64,000 nucleotides of DNA from Ginglymostoma cirratum. Taxonomy: Eukaryota. The stretch lies in the NCBI GenBank assembly GCA_024137785.1, contig JAHRHZ010000105.1, positions 6,700,219-6,764,218 of the forward strand. Direction: 5' to 3'. The first letter of the stretch is position 1. Each line of letters begins with the position of its first letter. A program made the translations under genes and the position numbers. Below the pieces are notes generated by a model. The model was not told the DNA's origin. It did no database searches and worked only from the letters and a program-made list of their open reading frames with translations. This document shows, one piece after another, positions 15,653 through 56,170 of this stretch.

Positions 15653-15673
15653 TACAAACATCACACTGTTCAG

Positions 15674-15881
15674 AAATAACACAGTGTGGAGCTGGAGGAG
15701 CACAGCAGGCCAGGCAGCATCAGAGGAGCAAGAAAGTCGACGTTTCGGGTCGGGATTTCTGAAGAAGGGTCCCAACCCGAAACGTCAGCTTTCCTGCTCC
15801 TCTGATGCTGCTTGGCCTGTTGTGATCCTCCAGCTCCACACTGTCTTATCTCTGACTCCAGCATTGGCAGTTCTTACTATC
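15674..15881 (+). mobile_element. Fold-back mini Penelope insertion (family A) with hammerhead core
   Basis: About 80-bp inverted arms. TSD TCACACTGTTCAG at 15661-15673 and 15882-15894. CTGAAGA-A-GGGT..ACCC-GAAA-CGTC at 15759-15786. Confidence 0.85.
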
Positions 15882-16604
15882 TCACACTGTTCAGGAAGCA
15901 CGGTTTAATTTTAGAATTTATATTGGAAAAAAGATCAAACTCCAGAGAGACAGACTACGCTGAGACTGAAAGCGTGTAAGAAAGAAGGAAAAATAAAAGT
16001 TTTTTTAAAATGCTGAACCGGTCTTGGGTTTTAAGAACTTATCGACTGTGGGAGAAAGCATAGAATGTAAAAGCGGAAGAACTCGTTGCTGTAAGGCCAT
16101 AAAAGAGTTTTTTTTTAAATTGAGCATAGATGAGTTCAATTAGACTACTCGAATAGTATAATTCTTGAATGCTTTCCTTCTTAGTTGAAGTCACAATCAA
16201 CCACTATACAAATGTAATCGGCGATGACCTCCGCTCAACGTCCTGGTAAAATAGGCTACATGTACACTGCACTAACAAAACACAAATTGCTTTTCGGAAA
16301 GTAGCTGGGAAATCAGACATCTGGGGTTGAGCAAGGCGTGAGCAAAACTGCTCTGAGTAAAGTTACATCTAACAAGGGACTGCGTAGAAATTTAAAGAAA
16401 AAGTTGGCAATGTTTGCACAGTGACTCATAAAGGATTGACCTTTACCTGTAGCATAAAGTAGATAGCCAGACGGGACGATTTTAGAATGCGAGTCATGCC
16501 AGTGAGTGAGACAGCATACTAAGACCGTTGGGCTTTTACAAATTGATTTGAGAATGGGGCAGTTTGCCACAGAATACCATTGTCCACTTTGTGGTTTGAA
16601 TTGC

Positions 16605-16940
16605 CATTGCAATTGTATAGCGCCTGACGACCATTGAACGCCCCAAAGTACTTCACGCGAAATGAAGCACTTTTCTGAAGAGTTGCTGTTATTCTATCTG
16701 GCGATAGGCAGCAGGCCCTTTGTACACAGCAAACTCCCACATACAACAAGGCGAGAATAGCCGGATAATTTTCTTTTGTGATGTTGAGTGAGGTGAATGT
16801 TGGCTAGGGTGGCACTCTGTTTTTCTCCTACATTGTACCATGAGAGCTTTTAAGTCCAGAGGGTAGGCAGGGGCTTATTTTAAACATTTCTTCTAAAAGG
16901 TGGCACCTCAGACGGCGCAGCACTGCCTCTCTTTTGCACT
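16605..16940 (-). mobile_element. Old Deu-type SINE
   Basis: Minus strand reads GTGCTGCGCCGTCTGAGGTGCCACCTTTT...GGCGCTATACAATTGCAA. Confidence 0.65.
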
Positions 16941-17330
16941 GGGCGGGGTGGGGGGGGGTTTGTACTAAATTTGCGTACAGTCCCTGTTGTGAACCGCGAA
17001 CTCGCTACCATCTGCGAGAAGGCTGCCAAAATTTTGCGCCAGTTGTGCCAAAGAATTTATCTTGGCTGTGTTCCATCCCTGTATTTGCCTTCTAGAGATA
17101 AGCGACCTTGCACGAAGTTGACACAGGAGGCAGCAGGGAAGGGGAAACACATGTTCATTCACGTAGCAAACGTTTTCTCTTTAAATAAACTAGAGCTGCC
17201 AACGTCATTTTGTGAGTGAGGAAAGGCACAAGGCTTATCTTTAGTCAGACCCACCTTCGAAACTCTTGCTCCTTAATAACGTGTCGGATTGCGAGTTCCT
17301 TTTGTGTAAGCAATGGGCAGTAATGCAATA

Positions 17331-17494
17331 TAAAAACCGAAAGAACTGCGGATGCTGTAAATCAGGAACAAAAACAAAGTTGCTCGAAAAGCTCAGTTCT
17401 GAGGAAGGGTCACCAGACCCGAAACGTTAATTCTGTTTTCTCCTTCGCAGATGCTGCCAGACCTGCTGAGCTTTTCCAGCAACTTTATTTTTGT
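17331..17494. mobile_element. Fold-back mini Penelope insertion (family B) with hammerhead core
   Basis: TSD GGCAGTAATGCAATA at 17316-17330 and 17495-17509. CTGAGGA-A-GGGTC-ACCA-GACCC-GAAA-CGTT at 17399-17428. Confidence 0.85.
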
Positions 17495-17659
17495 GGCAGT
17501 AATGCAATAGTACACGATGCTGAACTATAACTTCTTTATGCAATATTACCTTCTTAAAGAGGATGATTTTTCTCTGCCTTGCCTCAATACGTCCTCAACT
17601 TATTGACTGATGTTTTTCGTAGCGTCTAATCATCATCGGGATCAAAGCCATCGAGCAAT

Positions 17660-18162
17660 AAAAAGCAGGAAGTGCCGGAGAAACCCAGCAGGTTTTGCTG
17701 CTCCTGTAGAGAGAGAGAAACAGAATTAACGCTTCGAGTCCGATGACCTTTCGTCAGCAGCTGGGTCAGGTGGTATTTATACTGATGACAGTGAGTAGGG
17801 GAAACAGTCAACAGATTTGTATGGATTGGTTCCAGCGCGGGCAACACACTTTCAAACATTCACTGTTCTCGTTAGCACGCTATCCAGCATTTATTTCCTT
17901 CTGGACTTATCATAGCCAATCTCTTTGATCTCCTCTCCTCTTTTTTTCTCTCTGTCTCTATGCATTCTATTCGTCGTCCCCCTCCCCCGATATCACCATA
18001 AATGCCACCTTGTCCCCAGCGCTTTTAGTTCTGACGAACGGCCACTGGATTCGACACATTAATTTCCTTCTACCGTCCATAGATACTGCCAGACCTGTTG
18101 AGTTTCTCCAGCACTTTCTGTTTTTGTTTCGGATCTCCAGATCCGCAGTTCTGTGTTTTATC
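17660..18162. mobile_element. Older, longer inverted family-B Penelope remnant
   Basis: Diverged inverted termini, each with a decayed CTGACGA core (17751-17757 -, 18031-18037 +). Confidence 0.7.
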
Positions 18163-21100
18163 AAAGTTCCTGGGGTTTGCTGCTGCATCAGTTTAAACCC
18201 TGCCACACCGAGAACGCTTGAATGTAATAATGCTAGGCACACTTTCACCAGGACAGTGAACTATCAGATGCCTTACACTTTCCTAACGGTGGCAGTTATT
18301 TCTTCCTCTCTGCATTCTAGAGTGTGATTATGCGGTTTGAAAGAAAAATGCAAATTCGCGCAAACATCCACTTTATGAGTTTCCAGTCTGTTGCGAAAAG
18401 GGTATATCTGCCGCAGGGACCAGAAGCTGTCTGTAGTCCAATGGCATGAGTTTATTTCCTGAGATGTAAGGAGTTAGTTTTATTCCTGTTGCGCACACAG
18501 AGTTATTTCTAGCAACAGGTACCAAAAGACTAAGATGAAGTACCATCTGATGTAACTCTATTGCCTCTTCAGGCCCGGTTACCAATGAGCTTTCGTGGAA
18601 ATGAACGCTAGTCAGGACACTGTTGACGGAGACCTTTTGAACACATTTCTTCAAAAACCTGGGCGCTTGCCACGCAAGAATGTAACAGCAGGCGCCAAAA
18701 TAAAATCATTGCTCTATAAAATAGCTCAAGTCAAAGGGTTTTAAAACTGCATGAGTCACGGAGAGTTAGTTCAATTGGATGTGATGGAGGAGACTGATCT
18801 CTCGAGATAACGGTTATATTCTGCAGTATAGCGTCTTAATGAAATCAGATAACATGCCAAACAATTTCATATTTTCACATCAGGGTGAGGCTTGCGATTT
18901 GGATGTTGGTACCAGATAGAAGATGCCATTTTTTTTATATCCAGTCCTTTGTCATAATAACGCTACTAACGTCAGGACCGCGCCGACGTTAGACCGCGTG
19001 CATTTCGGGATCATAAACACGACGCCAGTTTCAGTTTTGAGTCTTGCATCTCGAGTCGGTTGAACTTTCCCTACCTTTTGAAGCACTTGGAGTATCAGTG
19101 GAGGAATAGGGGACTTTTTTTATCTGGGGGAGGGGCACGGTGTAGGTTATGACAATGGTTAGCAATTCTAAATACCAGGCGAAATCCTGCCACCCAACAT
19201 CCGCAGGTATGTGAATGAGAAAATTACTATAACCTATTCCATAAATGTTCATACGCAGAGAATGAAAAACAGGGTGATAGTAAACTAGAACCGTTCACGA
19301 AACAAGTAGTTTTCGGTTCAGTCACCAGCCTCACAATCTGTAATTAGAATCAGCGTGCCAATTGGAGGATTACATTTTTGACTATGGTCACCCAGTGTAT
19401 ATTTGTTCACCATCTTTTGTACAACACACATAAAGCACAAATCGTGTTTCTGGGTCATCGGCAATAGAGTAAATATAATGTCTTCCTAACATATTATCAC
19501 AGTTTTAAGGCTCGGTAGGGTCATAATTTCGTTTTGGATTTTTAAAATCTAAGTTTACTGTTTAAGTCATAAATTAGAAGTACAGTTGAAAGATCAGACT
19601 CAGAAACATGTGAAATGTTAAACATCAGATCTCACTATTTCCAACTCGACTTCCCATCCGTACACCAGCACCCCCACCCCCCGCTGCCCAGAAATTCCTT
19701 GGTTTAATGACATCTCCACGGCAACAAAAATTATTAAAATATTTCAACTGGTAAGCCAATGGATTCAAACGTTCAAAAGCATATAGTTGGATTTTAAGAT
19801 GAAACCAGTTTCCCTGCCTTACCCATTTTTACAGAGGGTTCTGGTTACACAATAGTAGCGTCTCTATCTCTGAGCCTGGGGGTTCAAGTTCCAACTCCAG
19901 AGGTGTGTAAAAACATCTCTGAACAGGGTGGTTAAGATGATCTACTCTCTTTCATACATTTACGCTCATATCAGCAAATGCAAGCAGGAAAAGTACACAT
20001 TAAACTTCAAAAAAATTATACTTTACTCCGAAAAAAAATTCATGTCAGTCAAAAAATATTCGGTGCATCAGGCCAGCGCCGTGGTTTTAGACATAGGGGT
20101 GCCCTATCTAAGACCACGCTCCTGTTCTCTTCCTTTTTCAAACAGCTTTCCCCTAAATACTTCAATATTCTGAGGCAGAGAATCCCACGTTCTAATCACC
20201 TTATGTGTATTTTTTTTTGTTTGCTTCTTATTGGTTGTTTTTCCAGGTCACATGCCGTGGAACTTATTGAGCAACAGTTGGATCTTTAATGGGAATATGT
20301 GTAAATCTATTGGAAACGCGACAATCGCCTTTACCACAATCATAAAACATTAACAGCAGTCACCACAAAGTGAACACAAAGCAACGTCAGTCAAGTAATC
20401 CATATGGAAGAAGAAAATGTGTGGTTTGCATAGATACTAACGCTCTGTGAAAAATATGCTAGCAATGTATTTCAAAAATCGTTAAATTCTATGTTGAATT
20501 TGCAGCAGATTATGCGTTTATTCTCCATAAAACTTGTACACACAGTTCATTGGAAGCATCTACAAGACCACTCGACGAAGGTTAGAATAGGAGATCACAC
20601 GGCGTGAGGTCTGCGTAGGACCAATAGCTAAACATCGGGCAATAAAACAATGTACCATTAAGGGAACGTACTTTATTTATTTTAATCAACCTACACAGAC
20701 ATATAATCACAACTCTTAAAAAGGGACTTGAACAGAGACCTCCTGGCTCAAAGGTAGAGACACTGCGACTGTGTTATTGATGCCCCTTACATCTTGTTTC
20801 TTCAATATCCGACTTTCATTGGCACTCAAAGCAACATTTTCAATTAAATTGGATAAATTTAAAAACTGAGTTGCGTATTCCAAAAACCTCGTCTTTGTGA
20901 CAAGGCATTTCTCCAATTCTACCTCGTGGTAACTGACTATTGGATGTCGAATTTAATTTCTTCAGGTACACATTATCACGTACTCGCGATAGGCTGCCAG
21001 GAATTTAATTTTCAGTAGTTACATCACGGTAGATATGAAATCTTATCTTCAAACTCCTGCACATTGCATCATGACCGGGTATAAAAGTGCTTTTTTGGCT

Positions 21101-22057
21101 AAAATTTTGCTTGTTCCACCAAAAGCTGCCGCTCTTAATTTTTGCTGCGTTCAAGAATACACATTTGGAACAACGTAAGAATTTATTGCGTCAATATGAA
21201 ATATTCAATAGCTCGCAATTTGGACAACATTTCTATTAGTTCACAATTAAACCAGTGTGTTCCAATTCCGGAGCCGAGGGGAGAGCTTTCCTTGTTTTCT
21301 CCGAGTCCCTGATAAAGTAACAGTCTCATTAGAAAGGCGAGTTATGATAGATGTTTGAAGAACTGAGCAATAATGTTTTGCCCTGGATCGTCAATCAATG
21401 TTCCTAAAGGAAGCCAAGTGTCTATTTTAATGTTCTGGAGTCTTAACAAGTGCTTACAAGCCGGAGCATTCAAAGCATATGAAAGCCACTGGTTTGCTGG
21501 GAATCAAAATAACTAACTTTGACATTTATAGTCATTAAACTTTGAAGTTGACATTTTCATTAACTATCTGGACCTTCGCTTAAACTGTTGTAAAAATCAA
21601 AAGATTCGTATAAACTTGGTAATGTGGTCAGTATCATGAAACCTGACAGTAGAGGCGCTTCCATTTAATTGAATAGGTACTGCCTGTCACACTCTAATAC
21701 ATCACTGAAATACCTCTCAATGTTTGCATCAATATTCTTATTTTCGCGTTGGATTTGATGGGAATAAGATGTCTAGCATTCTGTTGTTATCCACAGTGTT
21801 GTGGAAAGTAGGTCTTTGGATCTGTCGCTGCACGTTGGAAACTTACACCCAAAATTAACACTAATGACAGATTTATTGCAGTCAGTCAAAATAGGCGCCT
21901 CGCAGACAGAATCAATGTGCTGCATAAACAATTGTCACACAACCAATTTTGGTCTGTTCCAGTTACGTACAAGTGTGGTCGGGCGGGTCTTCGTGAGCAG
22001 GCTACCTTTGGTATGATCAGCCCTTTACCAGGGGAAAAAAAATGTCCAATGGAAGAA

Positions 22058-22192
22058 GAAGCCAAAGAAGGACAGATGCTGGAAATCAGAAACAAAAGCA
22101 TAAATTGTTGGGAAAACTCGGCAGGTCTGGTAGCATCTGTGAAGAGAAAGCAGAGTTAATGCTTCGGCTCCAGTGACCCTTCTTCAGAACTG
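22058..22192 (-). mobile_element. Family-B Penelope terminal fragment
   Basis: CAGATGCTGGAAATCAGAAACAAAA...GCAGGTCTGGTAGCATCTGTG...GACCCTTCTTCAGAAC. Confidence 0.75.
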
Positions 22193-22409
22193 ATCTTCAG
22201 AAAAAAGTGTCCAGGAGGCCAGTATTCGATGAAAGGCTTGTCAAACTTCTGCTTAATTCAGCAGTTCTGATATCCAACTGGAAGGGATTTGTTAGAGAGA
22301 TTAAAGTGTAGATTACTCATCCGAACTCACATGTCACTTGCAACAAACAAAATATTCCATGCAATGTCTAAGTTTGAAACCCCAATAAAGTATAAACTAG
22401 TGTGAGTTG

Positions 22410-22840
22410 GTAGGTCGAGATCTTATGAGGAAAGGCTGAGGGACTTGAGGCTGTTTTCGTTCGAGAGAAGAAAGTTAAGAGGTGACTTAATAGAGACATA
22501 CAAGATGATCAGAGGATTAGATAGGGTGGACAGTGAGAGCCTTTTTCCTCGGATAGTGATGGCTAGCACGAGGGGACATAGCTTTAAATTGAGGGGTGGT
22601 AGATATAGGACAGATGTCAGAGGTAGGCTCTTTACTCAGACAGTAGTAAGGGCGTGGAATGCCTTGCCTGCAGCAGTTGTAGACTCTCCAACTTTAAGGG
22701 CATTTAAATGGTCATTGGATAAACATATGGATGATAATGGAATAGTGTAGGTTAGATGGGCTTCAGATTGGTTTCACAGGTCGGCGCAACATCGAGGGCC
22801 GAAGGGCCTGTACTGCGCTGTAATGTTCTATGTTCTATGT
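22410..22840 (+). mobile_element. Young CR1-clade (HER1-like) LINE, 5'-truncated: ORF2 C-terminus and 3'UTR
   Basis: ORF 22445-22750 contains ERRKLRGDLIETYKMIRG...TRGHSFKL...WNALP, the typical CR1 ORF2 end; GCCGAAGGGCCTGT and (TGTTCTA)n tail. Confidence 0.92.
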
Positions 22841-24614
22841 GCGTAAGAGAACACCGACCAAGTATAAGGACATTCGGCTCTTGGAAATTCACCCACCTGG
22901 ATTCCCACCTCTGTCATTGCAACATCGTACACACACTCATGCCTGAACATGTTTCCTTGCATGGTTAACCAGTCACATAGCTTCACTAATCTTGCTTCCT
23001 GAGCAAACAAGATATCACAATTAGAATGGGAGATTCCAAACTTTTCTCTTCCAGAGATAAACCAACTAAGGATACACACCCAATTCTATTGAGCTATAAC
23101 AGTACCATGTTTGAACCTTCCTGTTTCAGTTTTACGGATTCTTGATATCCGAGTTCCTATCTCAAACTTGTTTTGCCAACAGTTGAATTCCTTATCCACT
23201 TCCACTGGAACATCAAGAGTTGGGTTGCGCAATGTTAGACAGTGAAAGGGGGCAGTTGGATTATTTAGACTGGCAGGCATTCATTCCACTTCCAAATATA
23301 TTCCCACTGTTTCAGTGAGATCACACGAAAATGTGAGAACTTGGCATTGTCCCGGTGTTTTATTTTATATAACTCTAGTTTGTTAGCATAAGTTCAAGCG
23401 TCCTAGACCCAAGTGCAGATCAACCTGTACTTCTCGTAAGGCAGACCTCTCTTGCGGTAACTGAACAGTCTAAAGCCCAGCTGAAGTCTAGAGCCTGTGC
23501 TGTATCCAACAAACAAGAGTTGCTGTCTCACAGGCGAACAGATCATATGTTATAAAGCAAGATGGTAGCCCAGGGACAGCCTCCAGCTCGCTAGACTTCT
23601 CTGATGTGCTTACCAATTATGTTTTTTTTAAATTTGCAAGAACTTTTAAATAGACATCTATAATTATATAAAACATGCTTATACAGCCTAAACTCGGACA
23701 CCGATCAGAGAACTGGACTCCACCCACTCAATAAGTCCATCCAATAATAGTTTCCAACACTAGCCATAAGCCAATGAAAAGCAGACAAAATGACGGGTTA
23801 ACGGAAAACTGCCTCGTCGTTTCCCAAGACCTGTTAAGGTAGAAAATCCTTCCAATATTATCCACACCCTAATTTCTATATAGCAACAAACTTCCACAAA
23901 CTATGAAATTTCAGTCCTGCCAACTCTACTAACATCATTTTACCGACACTAAGCTTTGGATACATGTTTAAAAGTTTAAAGTTTATCCTAGACCTGACTC
24001 TTTCGCACTCAGTTCTACATGTATTTTTTAAAAGAATACTCACAAACATTCAATATCGACAAGGAAACATTCCCCATATTTTGCTACAGAAGTCTGATAT
24101 GGATACCGAAGGATGTTGACTGCATAATATTGGATATTGGGACGTTTTGCCATCATGCGGCATGACTTGGAGTTTTAATTTCTCAACTCACTTCGAATCT
24201 TGGACCAAAAGCTAATGATTGAAGCGGAGTACATGAACAGTGACTTATTTTGCTTTATAGAGAATAGTCACCGGTTCCAATTGCGCATTCGTCAGTGTGA
24301 AAGATGCATCTACGCTTTGATTTACGACTTTTCCATGCCCTTGTAGCGTTGGTCACCCAGGCTGCACATTATTAGACTAGAGTAGGTGGGGCTTAAAGGT
24401 GTCCTTGCTCAGAGGTAGGGACATTATCACTGCATTACAAAATCCCTTACCTTTTGACTTGTAGGATGTCCTGTACCTTGCAGGAGTTACTGAGCGGTCA
24501 ATAGAAACAATTGTCAAATTGCAGCACGCCTTTCCCAGCGATTCCATCACCAAGTACTTCAATAAACAAAGATTATTTCACCAACCTGGCTCCTCAATAG
24601 AGAGTTGAGGATAT

Positions 24615-24785
24615 TGAAACAAATATAGAAAATGCTGGAAAAACTCAGCAGATCTTCTTCAGAACTTCAAATTTCTTCTGCTGAAGAACCGGACTCAAAA
24701 CATTATCTCTCGCTCTCCCTCCAAGGATACTGCCAGACCTATTGAATTTCTCCACGATTTTCTACGTTCGTTTCAGATTTTCAGA
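24615..24785. mobile_element. Degenerate fold-back family-B Penelope fragment
   Basis: GAAAATGCTGGAAAAACTCAGCAG and inverted GATACTGCCAGACCTATTGAATTTCTCCA. Confidence 0.6.
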
Positions 24786-25724
24786 TGTTGCCTTTATTAT
24801 AGTTGCTGGTTCAATCCAGCAACACGGCGTCATTGCTAGTTTGTCAGCAAAGAACTTCTCTCAACGCCGGGCAGCACAGTATCTAAGCTTTGTAGCTCTC
24901 GAATATCCCATACTTTTGGGCAAGATTTTGTTCAGAGATGAGAGTCAGGGTTAGATCGGAAGCGATGATATAGAGCAATTATTTAATGATTGTCCTCAAA
25001 CCTTACTGGGAGTTTGCAGGGCTATTTCTTCTGATTTGACTAAGGAGAGCTGCTACAGTTCCACCAAGCTTGCCCGGGATCCTTTCAAAAATTAATAAAA
25101 GCCACCCTAGATGATGCAGTCAGTTAATCTCCAAAATTGAACAGTTCAAAGGATTCAGCTCGAAAGAAAACGTACGGAATAACAAATGGTAAAAGTCCTG
25201 AGCTCTCGCTGTGGGGCTTTTTCAGGGAGTAAATTGAGAAGCGAGGTAGATAATTGGACCGACGACTATTAGCAACACTGCCTCCTCAGTTCTCAATTTA
25301 TCCCCAAGGACAGCTACAAGGCAAACGCTTAGTTTATATAATCGCACACGACTGAGATGTTTCGTTTAGAAATAGCGCTAATTATAGGTTTCTTACAAAT
25401 AGCATTTGATCTTAAATTCATTATAAAGTAAGTTGCGATTTGTCCTTCCGCCTTCAAAGGTCAGAATTTTAATGCATCTTTTATTCCATTGAGAAGTTAA
25501 GCAGCTGTTAATAATTATATGGATGAAGATGCAAAACGAAGTTAAAAAAATCGAGGAATCTTTTCACTCAACAGAGTAGAAATTATATAGAAGTATTAAA
25601 GGGATATTAGGGAGATAGCCGAGAGACAAATAGAAGAATATGTTGAGAAGATAAATATTTGAGTATAGCTGAGCAGAGCAATTTGCACTTAATGCAGTAG
25701 GGATAAAGTAGCCTTTGTCGAGAG

Positions 25725-25855: not shown

Positions 25856-27441
25856 ACTACAATGCAGGAATTGCAGGGAGCATTGACAGACTGGCTGAAG
25901 AATGGCAATTCAACCAAGCCATGCCAAGCGGATTGTAACACTTCGGGTCTGACTAGGACTATTAGCCCCCTCCCCGAGCCAACACAGTTATTGCAACAAC
26001 AACTCCCTCTGGGTATTTTAAAAAAGTGATGGGCAATAAACGTTGGTGTAACCAACGACACTCTCATCCTGTGAATGATGTTTTTTTAAAAAAAAACACA
26101 ATCAGCCCATTGAAAAGCATAAAACCGAGGAAGCAGCGATTCTGTGAAAGTTGGAAAAATAAAGGGAATTCCTGAAAAACTGGAGAAACAGTTCGTGATG
26201 AATCTGAAGTGTGACTCTCTCCACCGGTGATCCCAGACCTGCTGAGAGTTTTCTGCTGAAAACAAAAAAAAATGCTGGAAATCACAGCAGGTCAGGCAGC
26301 GTCCGTGGAGAGAGAGCAAGCTAACCTCTTGAGTCTAGGTGACTCTTCAATTCCTTTCCCTCAAAGACCACCAGGTCGTGTTGCCTGTTCTCGGATCCTA
26401 ACACGACTAGAATCTCCCTATATCTCAACCCACTGTCTTAAATGAAGCTGGTAGCGCTGCGAACAAATTCAACCTGGCCATGTCGATACCTGCAGTTTAC
26501 TCCGGGTTAACCACTTGGCTGGCCGCTAGATGTCGGAACCTCGTCGCTCTGCCGCCACCTCGGTCAACGTAGGACAGATTCACGGCGAATTCGCAAACCA
26601 ACCAGCGGTGTTGGTTCTCTCATTTTTGTGGGATCATTCCGTGAACACTTTATCTGCTTCATTTCCGCTAAAACAAACTATTTCCTCGTCGCATTATGAG
26701 GACGTAAAAGGTGCCATGCAAATGCAATTGCTTTCTTTCTGATCCAAACTTTGCACGTGGAGTGATCCCGGTTTAGATACCACACATGGCGACGCGCTTT
26801 TGGTTTTCTGCTGAAACATGTGAACACAATAATGCCAACAGCAGCAGCAAAAATGGACCTGGACACCGACAGCAACTGTCTCAAATGTTTCCTCTCAAGC
26901 TCGCGGTGTCCACAGCGCTCAAATAATTTGCCGGGTAATACGGAATTTGGCTGCGGGACGGACCACACATTCCGCATAATGAACGCCGAAGTCCTCAGAT
27001 TTTTGTGGTCAAAAATGTTTCATGAACAGACCGAAACTGTATGGCAAACGTTTCCCTCTCATTGCGGACATTTCCTGACGTGTTCTTATCTCCAGTCCTA
27101 GCTAACAAAAATACGTTAAGCTTTTCCAAAACAAAAATTCTAATGTTTTACGGCTTCAATGCGTGAGTCAGATAATCTCTCCTCGATTCCAGAAGCAACT
27201 AATTCCAATGGTTTTCAGTTTAATCCACTCCTAGAAGTGATGAAGCGACCAATTAGGATTTGACAAACCCTATCAACTACTAGAAATGTCGAGATGTCGA
27301 TTGATAGTATCGCATTTTATGAAAGAACGGTACAAGGTTGGTAAACAGAGGACAGAGATTTGCGATAATCGACAAAAAAAGGTCTAGGAAAGATTAGGTG
27401 ATCTTTAAAAAAGATCTTGCTATGATGTCCTGGAATGTATC

Positions 27442-45444: not shown

Positions 45445-45447
45445 ATG
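45445..45447 (+). CDS. PSMB3: PSMB3 coding exon 1 (ATG only)
   Basis: CAGAATG|GTGAGT consensus donor; phase 0 fits exon 2; completes a 618-nt, 205-aa CDS. Confidence 0.8.
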
Positions 45448-46771
45448 GTGAGTGATGAAAGGGAAAGTATTCAAAAATATAACTCCTTTTGCGCTGATTT
45501 ACAGCTTGTTTAATTTGCACATTAGAATGAGCCAGGCCTGACCTGACTAATGTGGCCTTTACTTTCTCTTTTAAGGCAAGACACATTTTATATTGTTTAA
45601 GTTTCATTTTAAACCTTAAGACGGTTCAGGTAATTTTATTACAATTATTAATGGTCTTTCTTTACCTAAAGGTGTGCCACAGAAATTTTAGATCCCCTTT
45701 TTAGGTAGTAATCCATTACAGGCTGATCCACTACAGTTTTAGGATGTTTTTTTCAATTATAATTTATTTTTCCTTTCTTCATAAGGCTTGTGTTTATTTT
45801 AACTTTCCAGTTATGATCCATTTTACCTGAGGAAGCATTCCTTCAGGATTTTAAGGTCTTAATGTCTGGATTCAACAGTAACTTCCTCTACCATATTTAC
45901 AGTTGGTTGACTTGCATTTTTGCTCCATTTTACAGTTTGATAAATTTCTTTTTTTATTTTGTCTTTCTGTCTAACCTACTGAATTTAAAAGAAAAATTCA
46001 GATTTGTATAGATTTGCAGGACTTCTTGATAACTTTAACACGGTGTGTTGGTGTACTTCTGTAGCAGAATGAAATACCTCCCAGGTTCTTTAGTTTATCT
46101 ACAGTCTCATTTCTGGAACCTTTTTTTTTTGTAAATCTTCTCTGCACTGTCGTCTTAGTGCCTTTGCCTCCTTCCTTATGCACGGTGCTCAGAAATTGAT
46201 TCAATTTCCTGTTGACCCAAACTTGTATTTTATAAAGTTTTACCATAACCTTCTTGCATATTTATTCTCTGCCTCTGGTTGTAAAGCCCGGGATCCCATA
46301 TCCCAAACCTTTCTCAAACTGCCTTATTTACCTATATTTTGATGAAAGTATCTTGCCAGGCGGTGTAATGCATTAAAAGTTATCCACTGGATTTTTTAAA
46401 CATTTTTTTGTGATATCTCAAAATTTGTAGTGCTCAGGAGAATGCTTTTTAAATAATAAAGTAGTTGAGTTTAATTTTTTTCCTTAATCATGATTTGGAA
46501 TTATGGTGAGATGGATTCACCCATCAAATGCTGCAGAGGTCTTGTGGCACAGTGGCAAAGTTCCCAGCATTTGGGCCAGAGGCACTGAGTTAACGTCACA
46601 TTCCAGGACTTGTTGATCATGGAGGTTGTATTCCTACACAGTTCAATATGATGATAATCATCCTGGGAATCTTTCCACACCTTCCCACTATTCCTCAAAG
46701 TATGTGTGATGATATACAAATAAAAAAGCATTGTAGGAGTTCCTAACTTGTTTTTCCTTCTCTTCCAACAG

Positions 46772-46956
46772 TCACACATGTCATATAATGGTGGGGCTGT
46801 TATGGCCATGCGGGGTAAAGATTGTGTGGCAATAGCAGCTGACAGACGGTTTGGAATTCAGGCACAGTTGGTGACGACTGACTTCCAGAAAATCTTTCCA
46901 ATGGGTGAAAGGTTATTTATTGGACTGGCTGGTCTCGGCACAGATGTACAGACGGT
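46772..46956 (+). CDS. PSMB3: PSMB3 exon 2 (proteasome subunit beta type-3)
   Basis: CAG|...|GTAAGT, 185 nt: [62 protein letters not shown]. Confidence 0.98.
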
Positions 46957-47103
46957 GTAAGTATTCTGGCAGAGGTTAACTGTTTCACCTTTGTTAAGAG
47001 ATAAGACGTCCTCAGTTAGACAGAGGATTAGCCAGTTCAGGTCTGTCTTGGGTTATTGATTTTAATAAAGGGAGCTGGTAAACCAGTTACGGATTTGGAA
47101 ATA

Positions 47104-47299
47104 ACAAGGTGCAGAGCTGGATGAACACAGCAGGTCAAGCAGCATCAGAGGAGCAGGAACGCTGACGTTTCGGGCCTAGACCCTTCTTCAGACTTCAGCC
47201 TTCCTGCTCCTCTGATGCTGCATGGCCTGCTGTGTTCATCCAGCTCTGCACCTTGTTATCTCAGATTCTCCAGCATCTGCAGTTCCTGCTATCTCTGAA
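47104..47299. mobile_element. Fold-back mini Penelope insertion (family A) in PSMB3 intron 2
   Basis: TSD ACGGATTTGGAAATA at 47089-47103 and 47300-47314; minus-strand core CTGAAGAAGGGTCTAGGCCCGAAACGTC at 47191-47164. Confidence 0.88.
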
Positions 47300-47749
47300 A
47301 CGGATTTGGAAATACCAGGTTTTGTTACCTGTGCTGGTTTTAAGGGATAATCCTCCTCCTGATTCCAATGTAGTGAATCGTGCTGTAAAATTCATGTCTG
47401 GTGAACTGATGTATAAACCAAGTATATGGTTGTACGCGCCACCTGGCATTAGGTACAAAGAATAGCCTCTTGGGTAAGATATTGGCTTTCCAGCCAAAGA
47501 CACCTTTAGAGTGAAGGAGAGTAGAGAGAACTTTGAGACCTCTGAAGTTCAAGTGACAGAATTTCACAGAATTGTTATGGTGCAGAATGAGACCATTCTA
47601 CCCATCATGTCTGCACTGGTTCTATTACCTTGTCCTTTCTGGTTTGATTTCCCCAGAATTTCCTGACAAATGCAAGTAATAACGATGCCAACTCACACTG
47701 TTGGCACTTGACCCATATTCTGCACTGAATAGCTCTGTATACACAAGAG

Positions 47750-48160
47750 AGTTGGCTTATGTGGAGACATTGAGTAGAAAGGGTCTATATTCTCTGGAGT
47801 TTAGAATAAGAGGGTGCTCTCATACAAATATTTAACATACTTAGTGGGCTTGATGGGATTAATTCTGAGGGGCTGTTTCTCCTGTCTGGAAAGACGAGAA
47901 CTGGGCCTCATGTCAGGGTGAGATATTAACAATTTAAGACACCAAATGAGGAGAACTGTTGTGAATCTTTGGAATTCCTCTGCCAATAGTCCTGGATACT
48001 CAATCTTTGATAAGCATATTCGAGAGTGAGACTGACAGTTTCTTGGGTAGTGATAGAACTATGGGATTGGATAGATCTGGAAAATGGAATTCAGGTAGAA
48101 CATTGTGTTCGATGGCAAAGCAGGTTTGAAAAGCAGCTCTCCTGCTTGTATTCCTAGAGT
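47750..48160 (+). mobile_element. Decayed CR1 3' fragment
   Basis: TATATTCTCTGGAGTTTAGAA...GTTGTGAATCTTTGGAATTC. Confidence 0.65.
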
Positions 48161-48654
48161 TCATACGGTTGTGTACTTCAGAAGGAAATGTTTCTTTGCC
48201 ACAGCGATTGCACTTCTAATTATCTGATGATGTGTGCTGCAGTAATCATTTTAAAAGCAATTTAAATGTAGGTCCCCAAGACCTCATTTAGTTCCTCCAG
48301 TGACGAGAATTATGTAAATTATGAATTTACAAATTTGATTCTGTGTGCTGTATTAGGAGATTACAGCCAGGCAGGAGTATGTAGTCATTGTAATCAACTT
48401 TTGGGCGTGTTATGACACGTGTCCAGGGTGGATGGAAGTTGAACCTGGACCTTCTTGCCCAAAGGTAGGGACAGTACCATCATCATGCAAGAGCTCTCTT
48501 ACGACCTGTTAATGTGGATAAAGACTTTGGAGATGTGCGAAATGTGAGCTTAAGGACTCGCCTGCTGTTTGTGAAATGTTGTGTCTGAAGTGTTATCCCA
48601 AGGTGGGGCTGGAGAATGTAGAGTTGGTCTGATAGGTGATACGTTAAGAAGAAA

Positions 48655-48958
48655 TCATAGAATCTCTACTATGTGGAAGCAGCCATCCCACTCAGACTGC
48701 ACCCCCCTTCCCCCCCTCCCCCGACCATCCCTGTAACCCTGCATTTCCCATGGCTAACCCACCTAGCTAGCACGTCCTTGAACATTATGAGCAATTTAGC
48801 ATGGCCAGTCCACCTAAACCTGCACATCTTTGGACTTTGGGAGGAAACTGGATCACCACGCAGACACAGAGAATGTGCAACCTCCATACAACAGTTGTCC
48901 AAGGATGGAATTGAACCTGGGTCCCCGGCGCTGTGAGGCAACAGTGCTAACCACTGAG
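48655..48958 (-). mobile_element. HE1 (V-SINE) elasmobranch SINE
   Basis: Minus strand reads CTCAGTGGTTAGCACTGTTGCCTCACAGCGCCGGGGACCCAGGTTCAATTCC...TTTCCTCCCAAAGTCCAAAGATGTGCAGG...GGCCATGCTAAATTGC. Confidence 0.88.
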
Positions 48959-50245
48959 TAACATCAACTTATGTTCTGCACCTGGTTGCAGTCTGGCATC
49001 CCATTTTCAATAGGTGCCATTTAAATTGGATTTTAGCTGAGACAAGTTTGACTGTCTCTGCCCAGTAGTGTTGGAGTAGGCCCTTGCTTTTGATGTCTAT
49101 TTGTAAATAATACATTCTTGGGTGAGGCAGCAGTGTGAGAGTGGCACCTGTATAACCATGCCTCCCATTTCTTCATTTCTACACTGTTAAATGCCAGTCT
49201 TACTAACAGTGTTGACCATCTGAGTTGCACTTGCACGACTGTGGAGCAGTGGGATGCTTCAGCAGATGGTTAAGAGGTAGCCACGTTGGGAGATGAACAA
49301 CATAAAAACAGGGGTCAGCCATTCACCCACATCGGTGAGAGCATGTCTTATCTATATCCTAACACCAACCACCCAATTAATTGCTGCTTGTTTGCCTTTA
49401 TTTCACCCTTTGTTACAGCACCAAAATGTTTTGCATATGAGAAAGAAATCACCCAATGGGAGTTTCTCTTTTCCAAAACCTGTTGTTCTTGAAGATTATG
49501 GGACTGAATCCTGTGCCAGTCCTCTTTATGTGATTCTGTTCGCTGCAACAGTTTACATTTGTATCAGTACTGAATGTTGGAAAATGAGGTGCTTCACAGA
49601 AGACTTGTCAAACAAAAGTTGATATTGAAACTAAGGAGGAGTATTAACAGGGATGTCTGAATTCTTGGACAAAGGGATAGATGTTCTGACAATCTAAAAG
49701 CAAGAGAGGGAGAGACAGAAGATGTTTTAAAGAGGGAATTAAAGAGCTTAGTCCCTAGATAGAGGAACGGCGCAGCATGCAGTGATAGGATGAAGGGACT
49801 GGGAAACGTTCAACCGGTCGGAGTTGGAGATTCACACAACATTTTCTGATTACAGCTCTGTGCCACGAAAGAAATATCTAAAATGCATTATGCAGTTTTT
49901 TGGTCTTATTAAATGCAGGCAAGTTCTGGCATTTTGCTGATGGAACCAGCTATACTACCCAAGTGGATTATTTTATTTTTAATGAGAATTGCAATTTTGG
50001 AATATACGTGGGAGCTGATCAGAAATCTGCCCACAGCCTACTAGCTAACATGCTGTTTTTCTTAAAAAGAGTTTACATAAGATCTGGTTTGCTCCATTTC
50101 CAACACTATAGGCTTCTGCATTTCAGAATAATCTGCCAGATGTCACAAAAGTTAGTGAATGCCTCAGTACAAGTTAAATATTGTCTCCCTTTATGGCTTG
50201 AAGTAGTCCACTACTGCTAATGCATATTTCCATTTTATTTTATAG

Positions 50246-50353
50246 ATCACAGCGACTCAAATTCAGGTTGAACCTGTATGAATTAAAAGAAGGCAGACAG
50301 ATCAAACCAAAAACGTTTATGAGCATGGTCTCAAATCTCCTCTATGAGCGACG
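50246..50353 (+). CDS. PSMB3: PSMB3 exon 3
   Basis: TAG|...|GTAGGT, 108 nt: [36 protein letters not shown]; absent from the ORF track. Confidence 0.97.
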
Positions 50354-50487
50354 GTAGGTTAAATATTCCAAATTCTTGTGAAGTGGTCGATGTTGTACAC
50401 CATTGTATTGTATGATTCTCAAATTTAAGTTTGCATTACTAACTCTCACACAAACATAATGTTCTGTACACATGTATCATCCTGTAA

Positions 50488-50813
50488 GGGGAGGTGATGG
50501 CCGAGTGGTATCAATGGTAGACTGTTAATCCAGAGACCCAGGTAATGTTCTGGGGACCCAGGTTCAAATCCTGCCCCAGCAGATGGTGGAATTTGAAACA
50601 ATAATAATAATATGACCATCGAACCATTATCGATTGTCAGGAAAAAACCATCTGGTTCACTAATGTTCTTTAGGGAAGGAAAGGCTGCCATCCTTACCTG
50701 ATCTGGCCAAATATGACCCCAAACCCAGCAATGTGGTTGATTTTAACTGCCCTCTGGCAGTAAATGCTGGCCTAGCCAGTGACATCCACATCCCATGAAT
50801 GAATAGAAAAAAA
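50488..50813 (+). mobile_element. SINE family X, full length
   Basis: tRNA-like head (TGGCCGAGTGG; GGTTCAAATCC), body and A-rich tail. Confidence 0.88.
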
Positions 50814-50866
50814 AGGCCTACAGTTTTTACACTCTAAACTGCTTATGTGAACTGTACAGAGTCCTT

Positions 50867-51025
50867 GATAACAAGCATGGGGCTGGATGAACACAGCAGG
50901 TCAAGCAGCATCATAGGAGCAGGAAAACTTGACGTTTCGGGCCTAAACCCTTCATCAGAAATGGGGGAGGGCAAGAGGGTTCTGAAATAAATAGGGAGAG
51001 AGGGGGAGGCGGATAGAGGATGGAT
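50867..51025 (-). mobile_element. Family-A Penelope terminus with canonical CTGATGA hammerhead core
   Basis: TSD AGAGTCCTT at 50858-50866 and 51026-51034; core on minus strand at 50958-50931; colinear with 62209-62370. Confidence 0.85.
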
Positions 51026-51352
51026 AGAGTCCTTATTGATTTTTGAGAGATCTTCAAAATCTAACTCCCAGTAACAGATAAGAACCTGTTGTGGCCTGTA
51101 AATGGTGCAATTTACCAGCGTGGTCCTGCTGAGGGTGCAGTCGAGCTATATTGCTGTGGATGTGCCATTGGGCACTGCAATAGTCTGTCTGAACCAGGAC
51201 ATTAAAACTGTAAATTAGTGTTCTGTGTTGTACGCTGTCCCTCAATTGCCTTATTCAATTTGATGAAGTCTGGGTCTCAGTGTTTCTTTTATGAGAAATG
51301 ACTTTTATGTGATGTGGATTTGTTTTCTTCTTATTACTTTCATCCTTCACAG

Positions 51353-51530
51353 ATTTGGCCCATACTATGTTGAACCAGTGATTGCAGGTCTTGATCCAAA
51401 AACCTACCAACCATTTATTTGTTCGCTTGACTTAATTGGCTGCCCAATGGAGACCGAAGACTTTGTGGTCAGTGGAACATGCTCAGAACAAATGTACGGA
51501 ATGTGTGAATCCCTTTGGGAACCAGACATG
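51353..51530 (+). CDS. PSMB3: PSMB3 exon 4
   Basis: CAG|...|GTGAGT, 178 nt: [59 protein letters not shown]. Confidence 0.98.
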
Positions 51531-52744
51531 GTGAGTACTGCTTGCCTCCTTGCCCTAAGGCTTTAGCACTTCGACCTGTTAATTACCTGGGGTGAATGCA
51601 AGAATGCTAGTTGTATTTTTTGTGTGAATATACTTTCTATTTTCTTTGATTCCAACATGACTTGTGCCTGGTGATGTTATCATTTTTTTGTGAAGAGTAT
51701 GGATCCGATTCTGAAATAACAATGGCATTGTATGATTTTTCAATTGCAGCCATGTGGTTGCCTCTGTGTATTGTCATTATTGCGACATTTAAGGAAGGAT
51801 TCATTGAAAACAAGCCTCCAAGATTTAATGGCACACCTTCCAACAAAGGGTGTCTTTAACTTAGCACCAAAATGATTGTCAAAGGGCTGAGCTGGCACAG
51901 AATTTCTCTTGCAGTAAGATTCTTTTAAAGCTGATGTGGTATGTGCTGATACTTCTTTGTTCCCTAGCCCAATGCTCTCTGCTGTTGAAGGCAATGATTT
52001 ACGCTGAGAAACTTCCACTGATACTGTTACCTTTCCAGTACTTCATTCAACTTGCCATTTTTCTTGTGAAGCTATATATTGTTGAGAAAACATTCACTTG
52101 TCCTGAGATTGAACCAGTTCCGTACAACTTTTACATATTTGTAAGGCCGCTGGGTTTAAAAACCAAATTTGAAACCTTAGTTGACTTCTTGATGCCACAT
52201 ACACACAAACCCAAGACAGGAACAATGAGGCAATCTTACTGTTTCTAATCGTCTGCACTTCAGCTAAATCCACACAGACCTGGCATTGAGCTTGAAACTT
52301 TTGTGAATGGTGTGGCTCAGTGACCCATCCAATGGGGTCCATTACCAGCTGAACCAGTAGATAGATATGGAGTTTTTATATCTTTCACAAGAATAACTAA
52401 TTCAGTATTTCATTAAAAGGGGTGCCATGCTACAGGCATTAAGTATGTATAGAGTTTCATATACTGCTGAGAAATCTTGGATGGCTTGGGCTGTTCAACA
52501 GATCCCAACTGCTGTTTCAGTGTACAAATTACCATTACTCTGGACTTCTATTCTGGGTAACGTGAAGCTTCAGAGGGCATGAATTGGCCTTCCGAGGGGC
52601 ACTTTACTGCACAACTGGGTGCTTACCCTGTCCCTTCAAAGCAAAGCAAATCAAATCAAATAGACCCATTCAGGAAAAAAATGATTTGTAACGGTACAAC
52701 AATTGTGTCCAAGCTAACATACCAAACGAATGTTTCCATTTCAG

Positions 52745-52839
52745 GAACCAGAAGATCTGTTTGAAACCATTTCTCAGGCTATGCTGAATGCTGTGGATAG
52801 AGATGCTGTATCTGGTATGGGTGTCATCGTGCACATCAT
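52745..52839 (+). CDS. PSMB3: PSMB3 exon 5
   Basis: CAG|...|GTAAGT, 95 nt: [32 protein letters not shown]. Confidence 0.97.
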
Positions 52840-53699
52840 GTAAGTTTGGAACACTCTTGTGCAGTTAGTTTCAGCTTGACTGAAAGTTAAGCTTCAATTT
52901 AACAATCATAATAAAATCAGGTTAATAATGGCAGAAGGAAGTTTCCATATGTGTTAAACATTGTGCTATCAAAAGTATTTACACTGCTGGGTTGCTAGAC
53001 GGTGCTGCATGAACAAAATCAGTCCATGGGGAGGAAGGTTATGATATATATCCATGTATGTGACTTAACCAAGTGTAAGTTTGAGTTAGAGCCCCAGTGA
53101 GACAGATGTGAGTCCAACAGTCCCTTCTGCAGGAGTGGAGAGGATAGGGGTAATCTGAATTAATTTGGTGGTGATGATGAAGAATGTGTTAATAAGAAAG
53201 CTCCCAAGATGCTACATACTATCCACTTTCCAGTAGACCCAGTAACTTGGCCAGTAAGGAAAGCCTGTGGAAGAAAATAGAAGCCTTTGTAATATGGATG
53301 CTAAAATTTCAACACAGACTATAAGATGAATGATCCTGTTGAATGGCAGACCAGTTTTGAGAGGCCAAACTTACTCCTGTTCCGACTTATGGTCTTATTG
53401 AAACTGTCAGGTCAAAAGGAACACTTTAAAAATAACATCCAGCTAATATTTTGTTGTTTTGATCAGAGTTGAAAAGCTACAGCAATCTCTAAAGGGCAAA
53501 GTGGAGGATAGCGTGTAGAAGGGCCAGGCCAGATATTGTTGACTGATGGATATATTGGAGTGGTTGAAGATGAGTTACAGTAGATATGTGAGGATTACAC
53601 AGGAGAGAAGAGTATGTGCTACAACAGCAGATTTCCTAGCAGGAGCAGATACAAACAGTAACAGAAATTTATTACATGTACAGTACTTAATTATTGCAT

Positions 53700-53945
53700 G
53701 ACGTTCACTAAACTGACTCCGAGGATGAGGTAACTCTCCTGGGAGGGAAGATTGAGTAGATTAGACCTGTATTCTGTCGGGATTAGAAAACAGATAATCT
53801 TATCAAAACATAATCTTCTTGACAGTGCTATGAGGATGTTTCCCTTGCATGGCGACTCGTAGCATTAAGGAACAAAGTCTCAGAATAAGGTGTTGATCAT
53901 TCAGAATTGAGATGAGAAGGAATTTCTTCATTCAGAGGGTGAAGT
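53700..53945 (+). mobile_element. Decayed CR1 fragment
   Basis: GAGATGAGAAGGAATTTCTTCATTCAGAGGGT (RRNFFIQRV), typical of the CR1 ORF2 end. Confidence 0.65.
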
Positions 53946-54734
53946 TTTCCTGGCCTTGCAGTGGTTGGTATGGTCCAGAATTACTGGAAGTGGGGAGCTA
54001 CATAATGATGATTCCTGACATGTCCCTGCTGCTAGAAAAGCTTTCTAAGAGTGGACAACTATCCGCTGTGTTGACAGGAGCAGCCATTTACAGGCCGGAA
54101 CCCTTTATTCGCATATCTGAAAACTGAAGAGACCTAAAAATTAAAAGGTCTTTTGAAAGCAGGCCTGAACACTTGTTGTAGATCTGCGTCTGAAAACCAA
54201 AAATATCCTTTATCCGCAAACCAGTTGGCCCTAATATTTATGGATAAAGGATTCCTAACTTGTAAAATAGTTAAGGCCTCAATTGGGTCAGTTTTCAGCA
54301 AATGCTAGGGAAGCGGCCACTTGCCATGTGTGGTAGCTAGCTCAGCAGAGCAGGCTATAGGACTGTCAGAGCTAGATTCCAGGAAAAGCTATGTGCACAA
54401 CCTGAGTGATTGCTCCACTTTTCATTCCAATGGCCTACTGGTTTCATCCCTTAAAAATTTTGATTGGACCTGATCCATACCTCTGAGGGTATGGCTATGT
54501 TCTGGCAGCCACATCATGGACCCTAGAACACAAATGCTCGCATTGTCCATGGCAATGCCTTTACCAAGCAGAGGCCACTTGCCAGTCGGCGTTCTTCTCT
54601 CATACCACAACATGGTTTTGTCATGAACTGGTATTCTTGTGTATTGTCCTCCCAAGTATAAGATGAAAAGCTTTGATAAAATATCTTTTTGTCAACAATA
54701 CCAAAGTAAATAGTTCAGGGAGCAGTCAACCTGT

Positions 54735-56170
54735 TTAAGAAGTGAGGGAGGGAATTATAGGGTGGTTAGCCTGACCTCTCGTTGGTAAGATTTTAGAATC
54801 CATTATTACACATGAGATTGCGGAGTACTTGGAAGTGCATGGTAAAATAGGGCTGAGGCATCACAGCTTCGTTAAGGGGAGGTCATGCCTGACAAGTCTG
54901 TTAGAATTCTTTGAGGAGGTAATGAGCAAGTTGGACAGAGGAGAGCCAGTGGCTGTAATCTATTTATATTTCCAGGAGGCTGCTAAATAAGATAAGAGCT
55001 CACACTGTTAGGTGCAAGTTGCTGGCATGAATAGAGGATTGGCTGACTTGCAGAAGGCAGAGAATAGAGATAAAGGGGTCTTTTTCAGGAGTTCTGCAGG
55101 TGTCAGTGTTGGGACCACAACTGCTCACATTATACATTAACGATCTGGAAGAAGGAACTGAGGCAGATGGCACAAAAATAGGTGGAGGGACAGGTAGCAT
55201 TGAGGAAGCAGGGAGGCTGCAGAAGGACTTGAACAGGCTAGGAGAGTGACAAAGAAGGGGCAAATGGAATACAATGTAGGAAAGTGTGAGGTTAGGCACT
55301 TTGGTTGTAAGAATGCAGGAGTAGACTTTTCTAAATGGGGAAAGGCTTCAGAAATCTGAAGCACAAAGGGACATGGGAATCCTAGTTCAGGATTCTCTTA
55401 AGGTTATATCAGAGATAAAAGGTACTGCAGATGCTGGAGAATCCGAGATAATAAGCATGGGGCTGGATGAACACAGCAGGTCAAGCAGCACCATAGGAGC
55501 AGGAAAACTTGACGTTCCGGGCCTAAACCCTTCTGAAGGGTTTAGGCCTGAAACGTCAAGTTTTCCTGCTCCTATGATGCTGCTTGACCTTCTCTTAAGG
55601 TTAATTTAGCAATTAGGAAGGCAAATACAGTGTCAGCATTCAGGAAGGTTATACTATAAGAGCAGGGATGTATTGCTGAGGGCTGCATTTCTAAGGAAGA
55701 ATATGCCAGTGTTGGAGGGGCCCATCGGAGGATAACATGGATGATCCTGAGGGTGAATGGCTTGTCATATGTGGAATGGTTCAGGACTGTGGGTCTATTC
55801 TGGGTTGAGTTTAGGAAGAGGTGGGGGCCTGATCAAAAATTACACAATACTGACAGCCTTGGATAGAGTGGATGTGGAGAAAGTGCTCTCAGTAGTAGGA
55901 CAGACTCGGAACTGAGGGCACAGCCTCAGAGTGAAGGGATGATGAAGAATTTCATTAGCCAGAGCGTGATGAATCTGTGGAACTCATTGCTGCAGAGGGC
56001 TGTGGAGGCCAAGTCAGTGTATTTGAGCCAGAGATAGGTTCTTCATTAGTTAGGGATCAGAGGTTACAGGGAGAAGGCAGGAAAATGGTGTTGAAAATCA
56101 CTTCAGACATGATTGAATGGTAGAGCAGAGTCAATGGGCTGACTGGTCTAATTCTGCTCTTATTGTACAG
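54735..56170 (+). mobile_element. Decayed CR1 LINE (RT remnant to 3' end) in PSMB3 intron 5
   Basis: GGGAATTATAGG..GTTAGCCTGAC, GGGAGGTCATGCCTGAC, GTGTTGGGACCACAACT and ATTAACGATCTGGA are CR1 RT motifs; frameshifted. Confidence 0.85.
55407..55589. mobile_element. Fold-back family-A mini Penelope nested in the CR1
   Basis: TSD TTCTCTTAAGGTTA at 55393-55406 and 55590-55603; arms invert at 55533. Confidence 0.88.

Follow-up and report, generated by a model that had tools for sequence, protein, structure and literature searches.

Minimal Penelope-like insertions, most sharing a 5' end at a predicted promoter, in a 64-kb stretch of the Ginglymostoma cirratum genome

Penelope-like elements (PLEs) have already been described with a layout that combines an inverted pseudo-long terminal repeat (pLTR), a one-sided tail and a target site duplication (TSD) (PMC3846280, PMC8557442), the TSDs of Adineta PLEs being 8-10 bp long (PMC3846280); the origin of the inverted ends and one-sided tails is stated as unresolved in PMC8557442. 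In Anolis, both strands are nicked and extended by the PLE protein, which uses two internal start sites on an RNA spanning the junction of pLTR and open reading frame (ORF) (PMC11167929), and PLE transcripts begin inside the pLTR (PMC2377424). We analysed one 64-kb stretch of Ginglymostoma cirratum DNA (GCA_024137785.1, contig JAHRHZ010000105.1, positions 6,700,219 to 6,764,218 of the forward strand; hereafter the window, with coordinates counted from its first base), in which seven short inserts are pLTR pieces of two subfamilies, A and B, of a Neptune-like Penelope retrotransposon, flanked by staggered-cut TSDs. On balance, we think it probable that these mini-insertions are dead-end products generated by the encoded protein of an autonomous Penelope element of Neptune-like type, through two-strand priming and copying of the RNA leader.

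Seven duplicated target sites and their parent element

Inserts are numbered by first base as 1 (15674), 2 (17331), 3 (37411), 4 (38152), 5 (47104), 6 (50867) and 7 (55407), and signed positions are counted from the first C of the hammerhead ribozyme core. Subfamily A has two 3' termini, T1 at about +91 and T2 at +124 to +129, T2 being T1 plus a tail of 33-36 nt. Two inserts lie in remnants of a long interspersed nuclear element (LINE) reverse transcriptase (RT).

15661..15894, insert 1, subfamily A: TSD 15661-15673 / 15882-15894; inverted arm 15674-15754 (minus strand), which ends tail-less at T1 and reaches about +12; direct arm 15755-15881 (plus strand), from -4 via the hammerhead and T1 (about 15852) into the tail
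17316..17509, insert 2, subfamily B: TSD 17316-17330 / 17495-17509; minus arm 17331-17396 carrying the tail and reaching about +62; plus arm starting at -6..-2 (junction microhomology) and ending at 17494 at T1, hammerhead core 17399-17428
37400..37522, plus strand, insert 3, subfamily B: TSD 37400-37410 / 37512-37522; simple, from about -5 to T1, tail-less
38141..38219, insert 4, subfamily A, embedded in a remnant of LINE RT: TSD 38141-38151 / 38209-38219; minus arm 38152-38173 (T1 to +68) and plus arm 38174-38208 (hardly more than the tail), scarcely overlapping; no ribozyme
47089..47314, insert 5, subfamily A: TSD 47089-47103 / 47300-47314; minus arm 47104-47192, running from T1 to -1 and holding the hammerhead core (47191-47164); plus arm at about 47195-47299, starting near the cleavage site (+23..+28) and carrying the tail
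50858..51034, minus strand, insert 6, subfamily A: TSD 50858-50866 / 51026-51034; simple, T1 to -67
55393..55603, insert 7, subfamily A, embedded in a remnant of LINE RT: TSD 55393-55406 / 55590-55603; minus arm 55407-55533, spanning the tail through +5; plus arm 55534-55589, spanning +4 through a non-canonical end at about +59

Exact TSDs of 13, 15, 11, 11, 15, 9 and 14 bp flank inserts 1-7, at the places and with the lengths originally predicted. Among 3000 random placements with a tolerance of +/-3 nt, chance duplications of at least 9 bp arose in 3 and of at least 11 bp in none; the weakest TSD is the 9 bp of insert 6, four bases of which also fit the element's upstream continuation. All seven inserts consist of terminal (pLTR) sequence mapping between -67 and about +129, also as predicted. 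They measure 57-208 bp and their ends are unequal. A TSD search around 12 other intervals gave a credible result only at 22056 (13 bp, one mismatch), besides the long copy listed below.

The original prediction labelled all seven as fold-backs resembling miniature inverted-repeat transposable elements (MITEs), with several forming long hairpins. Long hairpins are present in three of seven (inserts 1, 5 and 7; fold z -18.8, -18.2 and -12.9), while insert 2 is a partial hairpin (z -5.3), insert 4 an inversion with nearly non-overlapping arms (z -1.9), and inserts 3 and 6 have no inversion (z -1.3 each), so the label does not suit the set. True DNA-transposon MITEs would likewise be short and non-coding, and could account for the three hairpins; however, the TSDs follow no fixed length (9-15 bp), the ends are unequal, sizes and junctions differ, two inserts lack an inversion, and the sequence is continuous with an element encoding RT and a GIY-YIG endonuclease, making the parent a retroelement. 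We give MITEs practically no credence, and the earlier argument from variable TSDs for retrotransposition over DNA transposition stands.

A single-copy empty target had also been expected. At insert 4, three LINE RT proteins align gap-free across the site in its one-target form and none in its two-target form; at insert 7, the one-target form gives an in-frame alignment, interrupted close to the site by a gap of 4 codons, and is a better match than the two-target form. These paralogues point to a single-copy empty target for two of the seven inserts. The other five sites had no usable paralogue, no empty-site paralogue within the window spans a junction at any site, and LINE flank queries gave no match in a word-based search, nor did three LINE flank translations in Pfam. 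The two target remnants lie at 55130-55700 and 38100-38520, and we take them to be CR1-like; a 12-bp deletion adjoins the right TSD of insert 7.

Self-comparison and profile searches placed inserts 1, 4, 5, 6 and 7 in subfamily A, together with copies at 36018 and 62172, and inserts 2 and 3 in subfamily B, together with about ten older or unbounded pieces. The division into two subfamilies and the further copies go beyond the original prediction.

62158..63724, minus strand: long subfamily-A copy, TSD 62158-62171 / 63711-63724 (14 bp, 1 base ambiguous)
62574..63683, minus strand: ORF remnant with RT end, thumb, damaged zinc-finger linker and GIY-YIG endonuclease
17657..18160: head-to-head pair of subfamily B, older, tailed at its right end alone and lacking a credible TSD
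22036..22213, minus strand: tailed subfamily-B copy (from 22049), 13-bp TSD 22036-22048 / 22201-22213 with one mismatch
36018..36128, plus strand: copy of subfamily A spanning +18 to the end of the tail, without a clear TSD
36666..37235: inverted pair of subfamily B, its arms agreeing at 47/47 bases, on either side of the sole N gap in the window, which hides the junction

The long copy (about 1.5 kb, 62172-63710) comprises a 5'-truncated body, 62172-63689, that ends in the 3' pLTR and tail, and an inverted T1 stub of 21 bp, 63690-63710, identical at 21/21 bases to the copy's own 3' end. Since it has its own TSD and inverted 5' stub, the mini-insertions form the short end of one size range. 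Its ORF remnant (370 aa) matched 15 longer proteins at E 1e-88 to 2e-60 and aligned over 93-95% of its length to 13 of them; fourteen of the 15 are unnamed RT/GIY-YIG proteins, to which it is 41-46% identical, and the other, from Chiloscyllium punctatum, shares 63% identity. Homologues P0001 and P0011 score for RVT_1 and GIY-YIG, and the CX2-5CxxC linker between RT and endonuclease is present in all eight aligned homologues reaching the region and damaged in the window copy. Pfam gave no match for the window's own ORF remnant. Penelope-like origin, claimed originally, is borne out by pLTR pieces continuous with this copy; the parent is provisionally called Neptune-like. No full-length pLTR-ORF-pLTR copy occurs within the window.

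Each site appears to have formed independently, as the original prediction held. The hairpin of insert 7 and the plain insert 6 agree at 84/87 and 55/56 positions and form one group in the tree (support 91/97); shape is thus not an inherited trait. In the tree of copies the mini-insertions are interleaved with longer copies, most other inner branches being weakly supported. As for the remaining copies, both arms of the 17657-18160 pair (about 500 bp) extend past the promoter region, and the copy at 22036..22213 has its 5' end at about -7..-4 and a short core duplication. The N gap of the pair at 36666-37235 measures 400 bp (36765-37164), where a young palindrome may have broken the assembly; an extra short T1-region repeat lies to the right of the right arm.

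The shared 5' end, the hammerhead and a predicted promoter

The longest arms of inserts 1-7 end at -4, -5, -5, +68, -1, -67 and +4, so that five of the seven fall in a 10-nt interval where the hammerhead begins on its 5' side. This pile-up has p between 0.0004 and 0.015 over seven null models (three uniform, four geometric). Among nine arms reading past +5, seven stop in -6..+5, a window picked after seeing the data; when nine more copies with approximate ends are added, 11 of 16 ends fall within 15 nt, although these ends may be biased to the conserved core. The non-inverted copies at 37411 and 22049 end at the same point as the hairpins, and the same 5' boundary recurs in at least four sub-lineages of the two subfamilies. 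Thus inner breakpoints do differ from copy to copy base by base, as originally noted, but the extreme random truncation invoked for them does not fit ends that pile up at one point.

Core promoters are recognised here by the TATA and initiator (Inr) consensus motifs and their usual spacing. Four copies reach further upstream, and three of them show an Inr-like A at -4 together with a TATA-like box, whose start lies 31 nt (subfamily A, two copies) or 30 nt (subfamily B) from that A. Shuffling gave p 0.0006 and 0.0001 for this arrangement, post hoc.

62298..62333, minus strand: predicted subfamily-A core promoter of the long copy, TATA-like box 62333-62326, Inr-like A 62302, hammerhead core start 62298
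50858..51034, minus strand: insert 6, TATA-like box 50993-50986, Inr-like A 50962, hammerhead core 50958-50931
17657..18160, plus arm: TATA-like box 17997-18004, Inr-like A 18027, 30 nt apart
15755..15790, plus strand: minimal type I hammerhead of insert 1, core start 15759, predicted cleavage after 15786

Read most simply, -4 would be the first base of the transcript. An ATG in the subfamily-A core was considered as an ORF start and set aside, as frames differ among copies and subfamily B lacks the ATG.

The chief alternative, which we regard as unlikely but deserving of weight, is conventional 5' truncation, proceeding from the 3' pLTR and meeting a strong stop at the hammerhead. The mini-insertions would then be abortive products of the same two-strand priming, which comes close to the original prediction. 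The stop could come from RT stalling, from trimming of the RNA to the edge of a folded or protein-bound ribozyme, or from a splice acceptor. The pile-up falls on the 5' strand of stem I; clear truncations at scattered points are seen in inserts 4 and 6, in the short arms and in the long copy; and both subfamily-B copies carry a pyrimidine-AG just before the hammerhead, at -3/-2, a candidate 3' splice site that speaks for truncation and against a transcript start. On the other hand, stalling is generally expected 3' of a structure and not beyond it; in subfamily A the nearest candidate acceptor lies at -23, yet the arms stop at -4..+4; and the TATA/Inr spacing seen in both subfamilies would be left unexplained.

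A strict minimal-hammerhead descriptor matched four of seven inserts (1, 2, 5 and 6) and nothing in 20 shuffled windows. The ribozyme is intact in these four, whereas insert 3 has a stem II mismatch, the junction of insert 7 cuts through the core, and insert 4 has none. Stem cells pair in 87.7% of cases, against 52-59% after a one-position slide. Covariation of the stems over nine copies exceeded the shuffle control by no measure (148-441 of 500 shuffles reach it), and an Rfam scan returned no hammerhead family at E<=1. None of the seven isolated ribozyme regions folded better than shuffles (z -1.2 to +0.8), which would be expected of a dimer-type minimal hammerhead but gives no support. The hairpins at 47122-47238 and 15708-15818 gave sub-threshold Rfam matches to several microRNA precursor families, likely through shape alone.

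The shared boundary is also what an amplifying non-autonomous element would give, that is, a retrozyme monomer or a unit resembling a short interspersed nuclear element (SINE) that starts at -4 and is mobilised in trans; animal retrozymes have been proposed to be pLTR-derived, with dispersed monomers (bioRxiv 10.64898/2026.07.22.740005). We hold this to be very improbable. None of the five tandem arrays in the window consists of head-to-tail hammerhead units, the boundary recurs in at least four sub-lineages, and the mini-insertions are interleaved with longer copies, on a tree whose inner branches are mostly weak. A ribozyme-cut unit would start at +28, near which only one arm, of insert 5, begins. 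Moreover, the ribozyme is predicted to be locked in duplex in the hairpin copies, as in insert 1, where the minimum-energy fold of the whole insert pairs it into the long hairpin. The retrozyme-like RNA offered as an alternative in the original prediction loses ground accordingly, lacking head-to-tail arrays and ends at the cleavage site.

One-sided tail, target matches and proposed two-strand priming

The element has two 3' termini, and as a pattern its inverted inserts use the tail end once. In all six TSD-bounded inverted inserts (five of the seven inserts and the long copy) the tail occurs at exactly one end (p 0.016 under free choice at either end); the tail-less end lies at T1 in five and at about +59 in insert 7, and three unbounded inverted pairs likewise fit a one-sided tail. 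In inserts 2, 4 and 5 the tail sits on the arm that reaches less far, so the tailed arm cannot have been copied from the longer arm by folding back; in insert 4 the end of the tailed arm meets the start of the T1 arm. Identity between arms of an insert is 72/81, 57/60, 52/55 and 21/21, the arms belonging to the same sub-lineage, although arm 55407 is equally close to insert 6.

Six target bases beside each of the eight tail-less ends were compared with the continuation of the RNA, insert 4 being anchored by coordinates. They fit at 30 of 48 positions, a score reached by none of 200000 random draws; without the two best cases the match is 19/36 (p 0.0003-0.004). An endonuclease preferring T1-like DNA would yield the same matches.

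These data bear on a further explanation, in which inversions arise by self-priming or fold-back, the palindromic hammerhead favouring the turn and the endonuclease trimming the tail from one end. Fold-back on an antisense template was proposed in PMC3846280, and PMC8557442 attributes the tail to endonuclease resolution. In its favour, insert 7 turns almost symmetrically inside the core and self-complementarity peaks around the hammerhead (best microhomology averaging 3.4-3.8, against 2.6-3.4 in other parts). This peak (+10..+30), however, lies away from the pile-up of ends, the tail is on the shorter arm in three of six inverted inserts, the non-inverted copies at 37411 and 22049 share the stop point, and the T1 target matches point to target priming, with the above reservation about endonuclease preference. 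We judge fold-back improbable.

In the two-strand priming that we favour, the endonuclease would nick both target strands 9-15 nt apart, and reverse transcription of a single RNA would be primed by both 3' overhangs, at T2 by the first and at or near T1 by the second, aided by a few matching target bases. Head-to-head joining of the two cDNAs would give a hairpin, and one-sided priming a simple insert. The RNA would start about 4 nt before the hammerhead core, from the TATA/Inr promoter within the pLTR, and a pLTR-ORF-pLTR transcript would hold the RT start sites twice. Priming at the T1/T2 pair nearest the 5' end would then copy only the 95-130 nt leader and run off at the cap, so that many mini-insertions would be complete leader cDNAs and not truncations, which would place the ribozyme at the hairpin apex. 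Having lost the TATA box, they should not multiply further. The same termini and inverted layout in the 1.5-kb ORF-bearing copy support the mini-insertions as products of this element. The broader proposition, that PLEs routinely copy their own 5' leader in full and that their insertion relies on a programmed form of twin priming at two fixed positions, is possible, and we advance it tentatively.

Several points weigh against leader copying from such a promoter. Counts come from about nine datable insertions, two of the seven inserts end away from the pile-up, and exact arm ends are blurred by junction microhomology of 1-4 nt. The transcript start is a prediction from sequence only: the TATA-like box has two mismatches in subfamily A (one in subfamily B), the minus arm of 17657..18160 (copy 17660) has a perfect TATA at -24 and no Inr match, and no copy of the young B subfamily extends upstream. 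A 40-residue frame of a mini-insertion found no protein match among three candidates, leaving an overlap with the ORF start unsupported. As to priming, three of the eight tail-less ends lack a matching run at the junction itself, so target/RNA pairing looks helpful and not required. Penelope of D. virilis has a TATA-less internal promoter and an intron ending at helix I (PMC4209133, PMC2377424), and the Anolis protein starts in vitro at sites non-homologous to the cut DNA (PMC11167929).

Short duplicated pieces of the hammerhead core are present in junctions at 22188-22200, 24655-24677 and 47193-47199 and resemble templated synthesis during end joining. A SINE-like repeat (70-86% identity, A-rich end) occurs at 13161-13489, 15485-15652, 26000-26112, 35973-36403, 38716-39035 and 50505-50813; three copies of subfamily A (15674, 36018 and 50867) lie no more than about 60 bp from it, by chance or through target preference. 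The window further contains a tRNA gene at 30324-30397 (anticodon GUU, Asn; Rfam 68.4 bits) and a 150-bp direct repeat, 27442-27590 / 28881-29030, 83% identical and unrelated to the PLE.

Minimal inserts keep both junctions within 200 bp, and the genome thereby offers many cheap read-outs of the PLE reaction. If the 5' pile-up marks where transcription begins, a promoter is predicted there and solo hammerheads can be explained with no need for a new mobile RNA. Should leader copying be true, the thousands of vertebrate solo minimal hammerheads would be a by-product class whose 5' ends map the promoter; together with twin priming, it would bring inverted pLTRs, one-sided tails and dispersed hairpin loci under one mechanism. 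If the known layout alone holds, the finding is ordinary. Annotators should be warned that such hairpins mimic MITEs or microRNA precursors and may break assemblies.

Comparison with known systems

In LINE-1 twin priming, the second target strand primes internally through short complementarity, giving a 5' inversion inside the TSD. Inserts 4 and 7 resemble its products. Unlike LINE-1, the element has no poly(A), its second site is largely fixed (T1) and its arms usually overlap; cDNA must therefore be displaced or two RNAs used.

Endonuclease-containing (EN+) PLEs of the Neptune/Nematis type (PMC8557442, PMC3846280) share with this element an RT with C-terminal GIY-YIG domain, a pLTR hammerhead, the CX2-5CxxC linker (here in close homologues) and an inverted 5'-truncated copy with a 30-40 bp tail at one end. 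In contrast to them, arms here shrink to the terminal 20-130 bp, 5' ends pile up and TSDs reach 15 bp. Poseidon of Anolis carolinensis, PAc (PMC11167929), likewise has two RT starts a tail apart with the hammerhead just upstream and, as in the model proposed here, both strands are nicked and extended; it belongs to another PLE clade and showed no target/RNA homology in vitro, and in the sections consulted neither inverted inserts nor 5' ends are taken up. Ends of genomic PAc copies may already appear in Fig. S2 of that paper.

The dispersed minimal hammerheads of metazoan PLEs (PMC4209133) resemble ours in the bulged base before stem II, the absence of loop III and the palindromic stem III, and also occur mostly as single copies with some close opposite-strand pairs; that work treats solo hammerheads as probable truncated PLEs, whereas here TSDs and ends are mapped. 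Non-LTR retrozymes (PMC7229834; bioRxiv 10.64898/2026.07.22.740005) are similarly short, non-coding, hammerhead-bearing and pLTR-related, but are defined as head-to-tail tandems giving circular RNAs, and the present inserts are single or head-to-head and TSD-flanked. Penelope of D. virilis (PMC2377424) shares a transcript start inside the pLTR, a 34-bp tail and partial tandems flanked by inverted repeats of varying size; it is TATA-less with an intron 46 nt after the start, whereas here a TATA/Inr promoter is predicted directly before the ribozyme.

Among the largely open-access papers listed by literature searches, no title or abstract tied PLE inversions to twin priming or described a 5' pile-up at a promoter. 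Altogether, the seven inserts are real and mostly explained as minimal Penelope-like insertions of known layout, and the layout itself is not new; what this window would add to the described systems is a fixed 5' end at a predicted promoter and a set of junction rules, which make the two-strand priming model testable.

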